Positions 1,251 through 64,000 are shown, numbered from the stretch's first letter. The stretch: 64,000 nucleotides of DNA from Eledone cirrhosa (GCA_964016885.1 OZ024745.1:12586001-12650000); one strand, 5' to 3'. The notes: generated from the letters alone by a model not told the origin. Program-made: numbers and translations.

Positions 1251-3767
1251 GTCAATAAGGCCCTTGTATGTTGTAGATCGCGAAGAAGAAGAAGAAGTGC
1301 CGGATCATTGATCATTAGGTGCCAGAAAAGCGGTGTTACACCCGTGTATTCAGATGCAGATTTATAGCCAAACAAATAAATATTTTAAGCTCACTATTAA
1401 AGAATTACCTCCCTTGCATCGTAGAGCAAAGTAAAAGGATCTCCGTCGGTTTCATTGGATCAACGAAATGGCCTGCTCGTTAAAATAACGTGTAAGTGGC
1501 TGAGTATTCACAATACACATGCACCTTGAATGTAATTCTCAGGGAGATTCAGCGCGACATTCTACCTATTTGAATTAGAGGTAAAGTCCACCCAACGCGA
1601 TTCCAAGCAGTTTCCATCCACCTAATTCCACTGACAAGGTTTGGGTCAACACAAAGCTATAGTAAAATAAATTTTCCGCAGATGCCACACACTGGAATCA
1701 AACTATGAACCTCACAATTGTGAAACAAACTTGTTAACAATTCAACTATGTTACAATCATCAGTTCTCTAATTTAGAATTACTTCCCTTTCATTGTAATC
1801 TTTTCATATATGGTATATATGGTCCCGTAACTCCCGATGAACGGCTGCCATATTGACAAGCGCTGTTTCTTAGGGCATATTTTCAAAACCTAGCGGAGTT
1901 CATCTCTTTTCCTGGTCTGAATACAGCAAATTTCTTCCAAAGTAGGATAGGAAGTGAGAGAATAGAAGTGTGAAAGAGATATAGAGGAAGAATCGACTCC
2001 AGTACTAGACTGGTACTTTTTTTATCAACCTTGTTGAACTCAGAGAGCAGAGGGCCCGAATGAGTACAGCAAAGCATTCTATCCGACCTGTTAACGTCAA
2101 TTCACTGCCTTAATTTAAATAGGAACTATTTAAAATGGGTTGTTTTGTTTCCTAGAATCAGAGGTGGTTTCGTGCGGCGGGTTGGTATCTAAACGGTATC
2201 TAATACGAGTTTATCATATTCACTATAACAAATCATTTTAAATCCACCAACGTTTATTTCACAGTGAATTGTTTTTCTCTCGTGTGAAGGTCTGTTAACT
2301 TTAGTTCGGTTCTCATTTTAAACGCATTCAATGACAATTCAATTAATCACAAATGAATATATTATATATAAATGAATATAACCAGTAAAAGACAGCCGTG
2401 GAGTAATATATATAATGCCAAACAACGAAACAAGGCTTGTTAGTTAGTTAAGCCACAGTTTACGATCGCTTCAGAAGGCAAAAAACATTTATTCTCGATA
2501 GTTATATAGCTCCATACTATTATACCCCCACCTCAGCACATTACATATATACACACACGCGCGCGCGCAAACACACATATATAGATATATGTATAATATA
2601 TATGTTCGTGTGTAGAGAGAGAGAGAAAGAAAGAAAGAGAGAGGGGGAGATATTATTCATACATACACACACACACACATATATATATATGTGATATATA
2701 TATACATATAATATATATATACATACAATCTATATATTCATACCTATAACACACACACACGTATACACGTGTGCATATATCTTCCCCTCCCTCCACTCCC
2801 CTTACCATCACCATTGAATTTATTTCTACCTTTCTTTCTCTCTTTTTTTTTTATTTTTTTTTTTTCAAACATGACATAACTTAATTTATGAATAAAACTT
2901 TTGATTTTTGAAAAACGTACATAACATAAGATAACATTAAAGGAGATTACTCTTGTTTCCATCTCTTCCTGATTATCTCCCTTGACACAATTGGTATCTG
3001 TCGGACAGACAACCCTGATACGATATTCTTTAAGAAGTTCGTTTATTAAGCAAGCGATGCGATGTTCGATCCCATTTTATGTCAAAATGAATGAATGTCT
3101 TCTACTGTAGCATCGGGTGGGCGTGTGTGTGTTTATTCTGTGTGTGTGTGTATGTGTGTGTCTGGGATTTATATGCTATATATATATATATATATATATA
3201 TAAATATTCCAACCATCCACACCATATCTTGAAAAATATCCAGCACCTCGCCATAATCTGACGGAACTACCTCAGGACCTTATCCATGAACATACACTCA
3301 CACATTTTTTTTCGCACCACGCCACCCACATCCACACCACATATAAACACAAACACACACGTGCGTACCCCCACATATACACAACCTCCGGAATCCATAC
3401 GCCACCTCCCTCACCCCCTGAACCCTCTCCTTCCACACGTACGCACACATCGACTTACACCCCACCCCACGCAAACACCTTTTCCTGAACATGGAACCTC
3501 GTTCTTCCGCAAACGCTCACATACACACGCACACACACTCACGTACACCTACACACATACAAAAACACCACCTTCAGCCTTCCTCGCTTCGACCCCCGCC
3601 TCCCTCTCCCAACTCCACCTGCCACCACCCTTACACGCCCCACAACCTTCCACCACTTGTCCATCTTATTGTTTATTCTTATTTTTATTTTTATTTGTTC
3701 TCCTTCCCCCTTTTTTCTAAATGTATTTCCACGCACCCTCTGAACACTCTTCCTAACCTATTTATTC

Positions 3768-3795
3768 CTGAAGAAGGGCTTATGCCCGAAACGTC
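3768..3795 (+). ncRNA. Minimal Penelope-type hammerhead motif near the 3' end of a (TA)n-flanked element (about 3203-3882)
   Basis: CTGAAGA-A-GGGC-TTAT-GCCC-GAAA-CG-TC: intact core, 4-bp stem II, palindromic ACGT stem III, GUC site. Stem I pairs poorly. AATAAA follows at about 3830. Confidence 0.7.
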
Positions 3796-3897
3796 GTGCC
3801 CCACCTCCCACTCTCAAAAGCGTGAACCTAATAAACCTTTCTTTGTCTGCCTCTCTGTTTTGTTCCCGTATAAATTTGCACTATATATATATATATA

Positions 3898-60277: not shown

Positions 60278-60739
60278 TGACTGTCAATGTAATATGGTGG
60301 TATTTTCTGGTGGTAGGGGAGGGTAGTAAATTGATGCTAAGTAGTCAAACACATACACACTGACAGGCACTCCTAATTTTCAAGATTCATTTATTCTAAA
60401 ACAAAAGGTTTTCATTGAGTGGCAATATTAAAATGCTCTGCTAAAAGATATAAATGTGTGTGTATACATATATATATGTGTGTGTTTGTGTATATATATA
60501 TATGTGTGTGTGTGTTTGTGTATATATATTTGTGTGTGTGTATATATATATATGTGTGTGTGTGTGTGTGTGCAAATTTCAATAATATTAATACACCCTA
60601 ATGGGGGTTAAACTCCCTATAGTGAAAAGTTTGGCCAATAAATGGAACAAGATTTTACGAACTTATCCTCTGGTTTTGGAGATAGACCCCCATAACCATA
60701 TATATTCTGAAACTACATTGCCCAGGGTACTTGTATAAG

Positions 60740-61180
60740 TATATTTCATTTTAATCAAAGGGTTCATCGGGGGCACAAAACCGCCGCTGATACTTTACCT
60801 TCGATTTATATGAAATTTAAACCATAGGTAAATGACAAGATATGATGCCTATTCACATCATTTCAGCAAATTTCAATAAAATTACAATACCCTAAATCTG
60901 AGTTAAACACTCTATTAGGGTTCACCAGAGGGCACAAAATCCCCGCTGAAAGTTTTTTCGGTTCGATTTATATGCAATTTAAACCATAGATAAATGAAGA
61001 GATATGATGCCTATTCACAAAATTTCAATACTATAAGACACCTTAATACTATAAGACTCTATTAGGGTTCCCCGGGGGTACAAACCCCCGCTGAAAACTT
61101 CTCCCTTTCATTTTATATGAAACTTAAACCATAGGTAAATGACAAGATATGATGCCTATTCACAAAAGTTTCAATTGATA
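60740..61180 (+). repeat. Degenerate tandem repeat, about 3 units of roughly 150-160 bp
   Basis: AGGGTTC..GGGCACAAAA..CCGCTGA..TTTATATGAAATTTAAACCATAGGTAAATGACAAGATATGATGCCTATTCACA recurs three times. Confidence 0.75.
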
Positions 61181-64000
61181 TTTTGAAAAAAATTATTTAC
61201 AAGAAACAAAATAAGAATAAGATTTAATAATGCAATTTTGATTTGATATATTACAAAAAAATGATGTTTTCCAATTTTTCATGCATTATATTTTACAGCA
61301 TAGTTACGTCCCTTTACGATCTGAGTTCAAATCCCGAGGTTGACTTTATTTTATCGACCCCGTAAGGATGAAAGGCAAAGTACCAGTAATGCACTGGGTA
61401 ATTGCTGGCCTTGTGCCTAAAGTAGAAACAATTATATTTTACATTGAGTAATATTGAGTTTTTCTCCATAAATCACTGATTTAAAATCAATCATTTTCTT
61501 ACAAAAAAAATGAGTGAAACTCAGCAAGGCGCTGGTAATTCGGCTAGTATATATATATATGTGAGTGTGTGTATATATATGTGTGTATGTGTATGTAGGA
61601 GAGGTGTAGGTAGAAACTCCATCCTCCGCCACATATGCAAACTATGGATACACAAGAGATGTAGTGGGATCTCAGGAAGTTTAGTTAAGAATGTAGGCTT
61701 TACATGTAGCAGTTGGACAAGTGACATCAAAGTCTGGGAGGACTTGGTAAAAACAATACCGAATTAGCAGCGGAGGGGGTGTTCTGAAAGGATGGGATGG
61801 AAGAAGTTGAGGGAGCTACTGCCGCAGCTGGATACAAAAGGCTTTTCCCTCAGAATAAAAGGTAGACTGTATGATGTGTGCACATGAACGGCAATGTTGC
61901 ATGGTAGTGAGAGCTGGGTGCTGTGTGTAGAAGACTTGCGTAGATTAGAAAGGAATGAAGCTTGTATGCTCCGATGGATGTGTAATAGTAATATACGCGA
62001 ACAGCAAACCATAAACAAACTGTAAGAGAAACTAGGCATAAGAGGAATCAAATGTGCAGTAGAGGAGATTATGTTGGTATGGACATGTGATTCGTATGAA
62101 GGATGACAGCTACATAAAGTCCCAGAAAGACTTGAGATGAAGTGATAAAAGCCGACCTTGCCCAATTGCATCTCTGAAAGGCAATGACACAGGACCAAGA
62201 TCTCTGGCGTTATGAGGTAATACAGAAACCCCAACTTCCCACAGGCCAAGGCTGAAACATACATACAGTATGCACCACTCCATCCCACATGCCAATATAT
62301 CTTTCATGAGAACAGGCCGAAACACTGTAAAGTGGTCGTGATGGTGACACGGTAAAAAACACCCAGTCCACACTGTAAAGTAGTCGTGGAGGAATCACAA
62401 CAAAAAAAACCCAGTACTCACTGTAAATGAACTTGGCATTAGGAAGGGCATCCAGCTGTAGAAACCAAGCCAAAATCAGTTCTTTATGAGCAAGACATGG
62501 TCACCTGACCGCACATGGCTCAGTGGTTAGAGCATTGGGCTTGCAATTGAAAGGTTGTGAGTTTAATTCTCGGACTGAGTGATGTGTTGTTTCCTTGAGC
62601 AAGACACTTTATTTCACATTGCTCCAGTTTACTCAGCTGTAGAAATGAGATGATAGGACTGGGGTCCCTATCATTCCACGGCAAAAAAAAAACAGCCAGC
62701 ACTCACTGTAAATTAAGTTGGTGTTAGGAAGGGCATCCAGCTGTAGAAATCAAGACAAGGTCAGCCGACCGGACACTGCCCACAACAGGACAACCCATGC
62801 TAGCGTAGAAGAACTGACATAAATGATGATGATGATGATGAAATATAATAGAGTTTTATAGCTTGCTTGAAGCATTGATGAATAGGAAACACAAATTAAA
62901 ATTTTGAAAACCAAGTTGAGGGCCTTTGAACCCCAGGCTGCTCCTGATTCTAGATGTGGAAGACGGGACCTTTGGTACCACACAGTGACGTCCTGTTCGA
63001 GAATTGGTCCAGCCCTCAATGCGAAAGTTTGGTCTTAGTCCCGGCAGGATTTTCCATATGTATATCATTGCATATCTCTCCCGTCTTCATTCCGAAGGGT
63101 AGAGTTTCAGTTCTTTTAGCCTCTCCCAGTAGCTCATCTCCTTCATTGTGCAATCCTCTTGGTGTAGCTTCGTTGGATTTTCTCAAGTTCCGTGGTTAGT
63201 TTGATACTATGGCGTGACCACAGCTGGGAGCATTCATCATCATTTCATTTTATGTCCACTTTTTCCCTGCTTGCAAGGGTGGGACGGGAACTGATTCTGG
63301 CTTGATTTCTACAGCTGGATGCTGTTCCTAACACCAACCTCATTTACAGTGAGTGCTGGGTGCTTTTTTCCCCGTGGCAACTCCACATCCACTTTACAGT
63401 GTGGGCTGGGTGCTTTTTTGTCATGGCACCTCCACGACTGCCAGTCCTATCATCTCATTTCTACAGCTGAGTAAACTGGAGCAATGTGAAATAAAGTGTC
63501 TTGCTCAAGGAAACAACACATCACCCGGTGTGAGAATTGAACTCACAACCTTTCGATTGCAAAGCCAATGCTCTCAATATGTACACACACAGTAATAATA
63601 ATACATATGAAGACTAAAATCCAAAGAGGGCTCGATAGGGATAAATATATATCAAATATATAAGAACCGTAGAGCAAATATTTATTAAAATAACAGATTA
63701 AAGTTTAAGCAAAGAATCGGCTGCTTTCACCCTTAATGGGATCTTCTGAAACTAAAAAAGAAAAAAAAAAATCAATCTGTGAATGCAGAAGTAAATATTT
63801 CGAAAAACGTTGCAACCGAAAGAAGACAGGAAGGCGATACTTTGGTTCGTGGAGACGTAGTTTTAGGTATTTCTTCTTGCTTGGTACGGGTATGTTCTTT
63901 GTAGAAATATTCAGATGTTTCTGCATTATGAATATAAGTCAATAGAGTACTCAATCAAGGGAGCCAAATAGTAATAATAATAAATTTGAAGACATCCAAA

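Follow-up and report, generated by a model that had tools for sequence, protein, structure and literature searches.

Type I hammerhead motifs beside (TA)n runs in Eledone cirrhosa: probable association with Hydra-type Penelope-like elements and with tandem units lacking open reading frames

We analysed a 64,000-nucleotide (nt) stretch of the Eledone cirrhosa genome (GCA_964016885.1 OZ024745.1:12586001-12650000; hereafter the window), in which motifs resembling type I hammerhead ribozymes (HHRs) recur beside (TA)n runs. Our results indicate that these motifs are very probably type I HHRs located in the 3′ pseudo-long terminal repeats (pLTRs) of a radiation of Penelope-like elements (PLEs), mainly of the Hydra clade, together with units devoid of open reading frames (ORFs) that would borrow the same machinery, with insertion primed on (TA)n as proposed below. 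The Hydra clade comprises HHR-bearing, (TA)n-inserting PLEs and includes Hydra-1_Obim of Octopus bimaculoides (Craig et al. 2021, PMC8557442; for this and all cited sources except PMC11167929, our statements refer to part of the source). Four families are connected to Hydra-type ORFs, three are ORF-less, and one insertion has an empty counterpart of its target site. This supports the original prediction, made from the sequence of the window, of a diverse PLE radiation whose non-autonomous passengers use (TA)n.

Results

The descriptor used for type I HHRs comprises the core CUGANGA, in which a single change or a U3-A8 pair is tolerated, the GAAA and UH elements, and scored stems. At a score of at least 14, we identified 13 motifs in the window (Table 1), while 40 local dinucleotide shuffles gave a mean of 0.55 (maximum 2) and the reversed sequence gave none. 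Masked self-BLAST confirmed the fold-backs in which many motifs had been predicted to sit, and the 13 motifs thus represent about ten insertions. The core plus stems I-III is found in families F2, F4a, F4b and F5, with a canonical core, and in F7 and F8, with the U3-A8 pair; the core is deviant in F3 and F9, and stem I is weak in F1.

Since the scoring had been tuned post hoc, a random sample of 400 kb (forty 10-kb stretches placed at round coordinates, all from contigs C1-C5, score of at least 18) served as the independent test. It contains 48 HHR matches, distributed over 21 of the 40 stretches and forming 24 sequence clusters, against 0-2 matches in six shuffles and 2 in the reversed sequence. 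Hammerhead-like motifs, as originally claimed, are thus present far above the rate of dinucleotide-shuffled DNA both in the window and outside it. Chance motifs in AT-rich, repeat-rich DNA would fit the lack of any Rfam match and a descriptor tuned on the window. Nonetheless, a chance origin is refuted by the shuffled, reversed and independent-DNA controls (13 versus 0.55; 48 versus 0-2) and by a whole-genome search with an exact pattern for a narrow canonical subclass, which gave 62,839 matches versus 4,216 for the reversed pattern; we give this explanation practically no weight.

The motif density is one HHR per 8.3 kb in the sample and one per 4.9 kb in the window, the latter in line with the predicted one per 4-5 kb. 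As this is less than twice the sample mean, the window is not special. We had considered it as an HHR hotspot and rejected this, since a similar density is attained by random 10-kb pieces.

Among the families with coding capacity, F7 is found intact at C1:437.2 Mb, where four 3,531-bp units are arranged head to tail with a 5′ inversion. The unit carries a 717-amino-acid (aa) ORF (ATG at 94) and a predicted HHR cleavage site 97 nt before its 3′ end. All copies scored (40/40) are 100% identical to that of the window, and 18 of 25 copies retrieved end in TA, the other 7 running on into the next unit. The F7 protein has the motifs RWR37, DKT117, YRDD, CxCx5C572, YIG606, CxxC670 and CxH698. The RWK-type motif is thus present as RWR at 37, with R37 and W38 invariant in the homolog alignment, and GxK[FY] is absent. 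DKT, not DKG, is found in the F7 and F9 frames, which both also possess the CxCx5C linker and the C-terminal CxxC and CxH. CCHH is absent from the endonuclease (EN): no CxxC precedes YIG, and the alignment consensus has neither the Cys pair nor the second His. At least 2049 homologs were found at E<=1e-20 among 8000 scored, and the best PDB match of the predicted structure (mean predicted local distance difference test, pLDDT, 88) is the telomerase reverse transcriptase TERT. Contigs of three runs span the F7 unit and are uninformative on its ends or expression.

Three further families can be connected to such ORFs. At one locus, a 627-aa Hydra frame sharing 53% identity with F7 is bordered by inverted and sense copies of the F9 HHR. 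In F4b, a sense HHR lies downstream of a Hydra ORF in locus L182 and an inverted HHR precedes the ORF in L181, L182 and the window, while the F3 3′ untranslated region (UTR) lies after a Hydra EN ORF in L058 and L171. The Penelope GIY-YIG fragment predicted beside one motif proved real; it is 36% identical to the F7 EN region, lacks CxxC and falls short of most genomic copies by about 55 bp. Given the arrangement of inverted F4b pLTR and Hydra ORF elsewhere, this fragment is the body of an F4b copy, following the inverted pLTR. The general PLE features, namely pLTRs and tandem and 5′-inverted structures, are all present. From motifs compared by eye, we assign F3, F4b, F7 and F9 as putative 3′ pLTRs of Hydra-clade PLEs.

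Other families appear as ORF-less tandem units. F8 has a 593-nt unit (longest ORF 78 aa) with one HHR and a palindromic stem III, and forms dimers and trimers. F5 has a 682-nt unit (longest ORF 56 aa), found in partial tandems only with one HHR seen, and F2 recurs with a 428-nt period in one locus (L074) and with a spacing of about 490 nt at C1:5.54 Mb. Two consecutive HHR units without an ORF, as expected of retrozymes, are therefore found in F8 dimers and trimers and in the F2 pair of one locus, and only partially in F5. Circular folds are predicted for F8 (z -4.8) and F5 (z -3.0). F2, F5 and F8 have insertion marks in common with F7: 3′ ends that are fixed and abut TA, 5′ ends that vary, and inversions. 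On this architecture they appear to fit the definition of non-LTR (long terminal repeat) retrozymes, circular RNA being a prediction. Comparing the DNA of F1, F2, F5, F6, F8, F10, F11 and of a 310-nt unit with that of four Hydra elements yielded no more than two short matches.

A satellite origin, in which F2, F5 and F8 were spread by unequal crossing-over and not retrotransposed, would agree with the existence of long tandem HHR arrays (310- and 466-nt periods) and with the lack of a sequence tie to a Hydra element. It is nonetheless very improbable, as the three families are scattered over many chromosomes with fixed (TA)n 3′ ends, variable 5′ ends and F7-like inversions.

The relation to (TA)n was assessed in the random sample, where (TA)>=5 occurs within 200 nt downstream of 38 of the 48 motifs versus 19% of random positions, and upstream of 15/48; since the matches are clustered, a formal p-value would be too small, but the direction is clear. 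The predicted enrichment near (TA)n is thus found in DNA that itself abounds in TA, with 1007 runs over the 400 kb. For 12 of the 13 scored motifs of the window, a (TA)>=5 run lies no more than 300 nt downstream, as compared with 18% of random positions there. The F7 3′ end has 23,984 exact matches; among the first 100 listed, 84 continue TATATATATA, 14 continue with near-TA sequence and 2 with the element body (TATCTAG). Likewise, 14 of 15 F1 3′ ends pass directly into TATATA.

The window is one of about five segmental-duplication copies of 95-98% identity (C5 12.44, 12.59, 12.77, 12.96 and 13.16 Mb). The F7 insertion of the window is missing from 3/3 paralogs covering the site, a fourth stretch (L190) not spanning it. 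In these paralogs, the same flanks enclose 18, 20 and 18 nt of TA, i.e. (TA)9-10, while the filled site has 18 nt of TA to the left of F7 and 16 nt to the right. As the empty sites are already TA, (TA)n predates the insertion and about 14-16 nt were duplicated. F7 elements thus insert into (TA)n, as Hydra elements do. The target itself belongs to F10, an older HHR element whose 3′ tail it forms, and this accounts for the pile-ups.

It could be argued that (TA)n is not targeted but made by the elements, through telomerase-like reiteration on an internal UA patch. TERT as the closest fold, a UA patch at the start of reverse transcription, the 14-16 nt of TA gained at the single dated insertion and the TA-richness of the sample all go in this direction. 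This explanation is improbable, however, because the empty site holds (TA)9-10 in three paralogs, copies are TA-flanked on their 5′ side too, and the added TA is compatible with target duplication.

Comparison of terminal with read-through copies placed the terminus at 3-6 TA-like bases of the unit itself in F4b, F5, F7, F8, F9 and F10. Such TA matches are rare along the units (3.5% in F7 for at least 3 nt, 2.2% in F5 for at least 5 nt, 0.2% in F8 for at least 6 nt). By eye, the Hydra-1_Obim consensus starts with TAT and Hydra-2_Amil has a similar TAT after its HHR. At the other end, the start of 13 of 21 unselected F7 3′-end copies falls within the long stem II, 35-44 nt upstream of the cleavage site, mostly with a fold-back; altogether, 18/21 start upstream of the site and 2 at the site itself. 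Most F7 templates would therefore have been uncut or re-ligated RNA. Exact 21-mers of the first core half number 2,171 only, versus 23,984 exact 3′ ends, and F7 contig depth climbs steeply over the last 230 nt. In the literature searched, neither TA microhomology priming in Hydra nor a 5′ truncation pile-up inside a ribozyme was found.

The ribozyme core differs between the Hydra-linked families: canonical in F4b, U3-A8 in F7, U4A in F9 and U4C in F3. The U3-A8 pair is found in F7, F8 (TTGATAA in 28/28) and F11. We considered it as a novelty and rejected this, since it was already described as covariant in HHRs of the Schistosoma PLE Cercyon, with about 1,300 matches (PMC4209133), and U3-A8 hammerheads are active in vitro (PMC3088659). 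In F9, position 4 is A in 18,366 exact copies versus 181 non-A in a whole-genome pattern search. For F3, a pattern search found 3,757 exact 30-mers, with C4 in 99 of the first 100 listed, while a genome search with F3 DNA gave zero matches and missed even the copy of the window. The palindromic stem III of F3 switches compensatorily between CAGCTG and CAATTG in subfamilies that are about 19% diverged, and C4 is kept. U4C is a natural viroid variant that is active enough in vivo (PMC3088659). No natural U4A core was found in the literature searched, which does not cover the PLE variants of Lunse et al. (doi 10.1080/15476286.2016.1251002) that possibly include position-4 changes. The core changes at position 4 appear fixed in F9 and F3, with cleavage as a prediction.

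Fixation of these variants raises the possibility that the ribozymes travel largely as inert passengers, with elements that move without cleavage and with U4A and U4C as decay fixed in successful masters. The success of F9 with A4, the lack of stem I throughout F1, and the 18/21 F7 copies that imply an uncut or re-ligated template would all be expected under this explanation, as would the finding that HHR mutants insert unimpaired in vitro (PMC11167929). Yet 34 clusters among 152 matches keep an intact three-stem architecture (one being an artefact of a TA run), and the compensatory U3-A8 pair is present in 7 of these; F3 holds C4 while its palindrome changes compensatorily; and U4C is naturally active in viroids. 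We regard inert passengers as rather unlikely, though more plausible than the other alternatives.

From the random sample, we extrapolate to about 350,000 HHR motifs in the 3.0-Gb assembly (bootstrap 215,000-500,000; from contigs C1-C5). A direct floor of about 83,000 net is given by the canonical subclass together with F9 (18,366), F3 (3,757) and F7 (2,171), these exact-pattern counts ignoring stem pairing. The literature searched holds no cephalopod hammerhead counts, nor any at this scale; it does not cover the supplements of a bioRxiv preprint, which possibly include comparable counts. In the part of an Octopus vulgaris repeat paper covered here (PMC13282606), the words "ribozyme" and "Hydra" are absent. 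If the density estimate holds, the ribozyme motifs overlooked by standard annotation, in which Rfam finds none, number several hundred thousand in this genome.

Some HHR families lie outside the window. The best-scoring one of the random sample, at L147 4841 (+) with an inverted partner and a 10-bp stem II, is absent from it. ORF-less tandem arrays of 310 nt with one canonical HHR per unit occur at L084 7760-9901, at L087 4235-6752 and at C1 1.24, 5.39 and 5.54 Mb, organised in inverted blocks with (TA)n runs on either side; z for the circular fold is about -5.5. A 466-nt tandem array with at least 28 HHR units is located at C1:5738326-5750934.

The elements of the window are listed in Table 1. 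The coordinates originally given were mostly base-exact, but the motif placed at 4088 really lies at 4116-4152, and those placed at 31909 and 63693 are about 9 nt off. Three predicted sites (14273, 60228 and 16921) fall below the score in the window, while other copies of their families score 23-37: the first has the core CTGGTGA, the second has weak stems, and the third is 5′-truncated and lacks C3. The roughly nine families announced are real, and an eleventh, F11 near 4980, had been overlooked. F1 has a CTGAAGA core, a palindromic ACGT stem III and a stem I of about 1 bp throughout the family. A genome search for F1 gave 2271 candidates, of which 40 were scored, and a search for F5 gave 4369 candidates; F2 has 9 copies in the random 400 kb. 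Anchored copies of F6 are divided between CTGGTGA (2/4) and CTGATGA (2/4).

Table 1. HHR-related elements of the window (positions in the window; the 13 scored HHRs are given with their strand)
Feature	Position	Strand	Scored HHR	Remarks
F1 element between two (TA)n runs	3203..3881	+	3767-3796 (+)	minimal HHR
F2 fold-back copy	3898..4372	+	4116-4152 (+)	inverted arm 3898-4037; canonical core; palindromic ACTAGT stem III
F11 decayed copy	4976..5013	+		TAGAAAA; U3-A8 family; TTGAAAA in 7/9 anchored copies
F3 5′-inverted fold-back 3′ end of putative Hydra PLE	5224..6135	+	5263-5309 (-), 6050-6096 (+)	U4C core CCGAAGA
F4a short fold-back	6315..6543	-	6361-6427 (-)	canonical HHR; related to F4b
F5 5′-truncated copy of 682-nt unit	8072..8512	+	8138-8221 (+)	canonical HHR; long stem II; minimum-free-energy (MFE) fold is the hammerhead
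F6 element	14186..14406	-		minimal HHR ~14273-14308; core CTGGTGA in window
F4b putative inverted 5′ pLTR	14455..14604	-	14495-14559 (-)	canonical HHR; like arrangement in L181, L182
Hydra-type GIY-YIG endonuclease fragment	14592..15149	+		CxCx5C, YVG, CxH
Short F7 3′-end copies	15956-16117, 16131-16191, 16639-16849	.		truncated inside HHR stem II, without first core half
F10 truncated HHR copy	16920..16968	+		its 3′ (TA)n later F7 target
Left (TA)9 of duplicated target	16969..16986	.		paralog comparison
F7 young insertion of putative Hydra PLE	16987..18454	+	16999-17092 (-), 18269-18362 (+)	U3-A8 core TTGAGAA; inverted arm 16987-17370 with the (-) HHR; sense 3′ UTR/pLTR with the (+) HHR
Right (TA)8 of duplicated target	18455..18470	.		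paralog comparison
Short fold-back F7 3′-end copy	18729..18931	+		also in paralogs
F8 inverted and partial-tandem copy of 593-nt unit	30584..31840	+	30654-30743 (-), 31519-31608 (+)	TTGATAA
F9 3′ end of putative Hydra PLE	31901..32018	-	31918-31968 (-)	U4A core CAGAAGA; (TA)n 22 nt past cleavage site
F10 decayed HHR copy	60205..60290	-		core at 60271; (TA)n end
Second F9 copy	63685..63814	-	63702-63753 (-)	no (TA)>=5 nearby downstream

The window also holds features of other kinds. A Helitron Rep/helicase remnant lies at 37-1304 (-) (Helitron_like_N, E 3e-28), a broken non-LTR retrotransposon reverse transcriptase (RT) at 56021-58213 (+) (RVT_1), presumably RTE-like, and what we take to be mariner/Tc1-like transposase remnants at 34560-35690 (-), without Pfam match, and 55250-55630. 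An exon-like PALP fragment at 42015-42371 (+) (E 3e-10), which we assume resembles serine/threonine dehydratase, possibly belongs to a host gene in the duplicated block. Copies of a tRNA-derived short interspersed nuclear element, with weak tRNA matches and presumably CORE-type, lie at 13558-13727, 25608-25858, 62335-62757 and 63234-63574. A 49-bp satellite spans 45400-53700 in two opposed orientations, with inverted arms that are about 1.8 kb long and 92-93% identical, and minisatellites are found at 19394-20893 (45 bp), 23681-25485 (28), 25954-26493 (28), 27402-29427 (12) and 38230-39904 (~21/42). A histone 3′ stem-loop match at 54977-55021 (-), of 34 bits and thus at the Rfam gathering score, is half repeated at 54895-54958; no histone ORF was seen upstream of it.

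Discussion

Altogether, these results lead us to propose the following scheme for the insertion of HHR-bearing elements. The GIY-YIG domain would nick (TA)n, and the nicked 3′ end may pair with the 3-6-nt UA-rich patch just downstream of the HHR, in an RNA longer than the unit (tandem or circular), where the telomerase-like RT would begin. Most complementary DNAs (cDNAs) would end after about 135-140 nt, probably by stalling within the ribozyme's extended stem II, and then fold back, while longer cDNAs would produce an inverted pLTR plus body, or tandems. Every insertion would leave (TA)n on both sides, so that subsequent elements accumulate at these places. The most likely task of the HHR is to process multimeric transcripts to units, as dimers where stem III is palindromic, and it is probably dispensable for individual insertions.

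Several observations weigh against the association with Hydra-type PLEs and (TA)n priming proposed here. On the side of the motifs, a cmscan of the window with Rfam at E<=1 gave 108 matches among which the hammerhead family is absent, an earlier and stricter descriptor (allowing neither a minimal stem III nor a mismatch in stem II) gave 2 window matches only, and the final scoring was fixed after candidates had already been seen in the window. Furthermore, the hammerhead is the MFE fold for only 2/12 window motifs (F5 and F7). On the side of the elements, Pfam has no family for the F7 protein; it is also silent on the EN fragment of the window and on 30 aligned homologs, bar one weak unrelated match. 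The ORF links of F3, F4b and F9 come from 1-2 loci each, and F8 and F5 have no DNA similarity to the four Hydra elements bar one 44-nt match (E 2e-4). The search for autonomous partners that had been suggested gave Hydra ORFs for four families and none for five others (F1, F4a, F6, F10 and F11); indeed, no PLE-like ORF was found upstream of F1, F2, F4a, F6, F10 and F11 within the retrieved flanks (1.5 kb for F1). Finally, TA arrays slip in length, so that the 14-16-nt duplication is approximate and comes from one site, and the microhomology in F4b, F9 and F10 is a by-eye reading in AT-rich DNA.

A broader proposal, which we put forward tentatively and which may well not hold, is that active Hydra elements prime telomerase-style on (TA)n, mobilise retrozymes and enlarge the TA landscape, with about 350,000 HHRs in more than 30 families, the densest known, and with U4A and U4C as active natural ribozymes. 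If true, the 100%-identical F7 would be a ready system to ask why PLEs keep ribozymes and how microsatellites are chosen.

The association between PLEs, hammerheads and (TA)n is published, and the headline is therefore not new: the families described here are new members of Hydra PLEs, PLE hammerheads and retrozymes. Added here are the scale, an observed target site with its empty counterpart, a rule for priming that can be tested, the variants at position 4 and F7 as an intact, young element. The locus thus bears on published open questions, namely microsatellite choice by PLEs, the HHR's role and the mobilisation of retrozymes.

Like the elements found here, Hydra-clade PLEs (PMC8557442) have a single ORF with RT and C-terminal GIY-YIG, RWK-like, DKT, CxCx5C, CxxC and CxH motifs, a type I HHR close to the 3′ end, in which a 10.1/11.1 mismatch is frequent, and (TA)n insertion. 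By eye, Hydra-1_Obim matches the F7 protein motif by motif, but its HHR is unlike every family found here. Moreover, the Hydra HHRs of File S2 in that study are all CTGANGA, whereas F7 has U3-A8, F9 U4A and F3 U4C, and F7 reaches 3.5 kb while Hydra elements are generally below 3 kb. An empty site, microhomology and a truncation hotspot are described here, with none in the part of PMC8557442 covered.

The minimal hammerheads of PLEs (Cervera and de la Pena 2014, PMC4209133) are also type I HHRs in pLTRs; their stem III is palindromic for dimers, each genome holds many families, and pairs on opposite strands and U3-A8 occur. F1 and F6 correspond to this minimal form, while several of our motifs differ from it by a full stem III and a long stem II. 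Counts of 2,000-9,000 per genome were reported there, against a direct count of more than 80,000 and an extrapolation to about 350,000 here, the descriptors being different.

Non-LTR retrozymes (PMC7229834; bioRxiv 10.64898/2026.07.22.740005), proposed to derive from PLEs and to be mobilised by them, resemble our ORF-less tandem units in having one type I HHR each, a low GC content and a circle-like structure; the largest count in the parts covered is 120,000, in axolotl. The units here are 430-690 nt long, versus 150-450 nt, and, unlike the published ones, they bear insertion marks of the PLE type, namely a fixed end at (TA)n and 5′ inversion.

Finally, Poseidon PAc of Anolis, studied in vitro (Frangieh et al. 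2024, PMC11167929), shares with our elements an internal start of reverse transcription downstream of the HHR and AT-rich targets. Uncut RNA is its main substrate and HHR cleavage is not needed. The PAc start has no homology to the target, whereas the start found here coincides with a TA-like patch that matches (TA)n.

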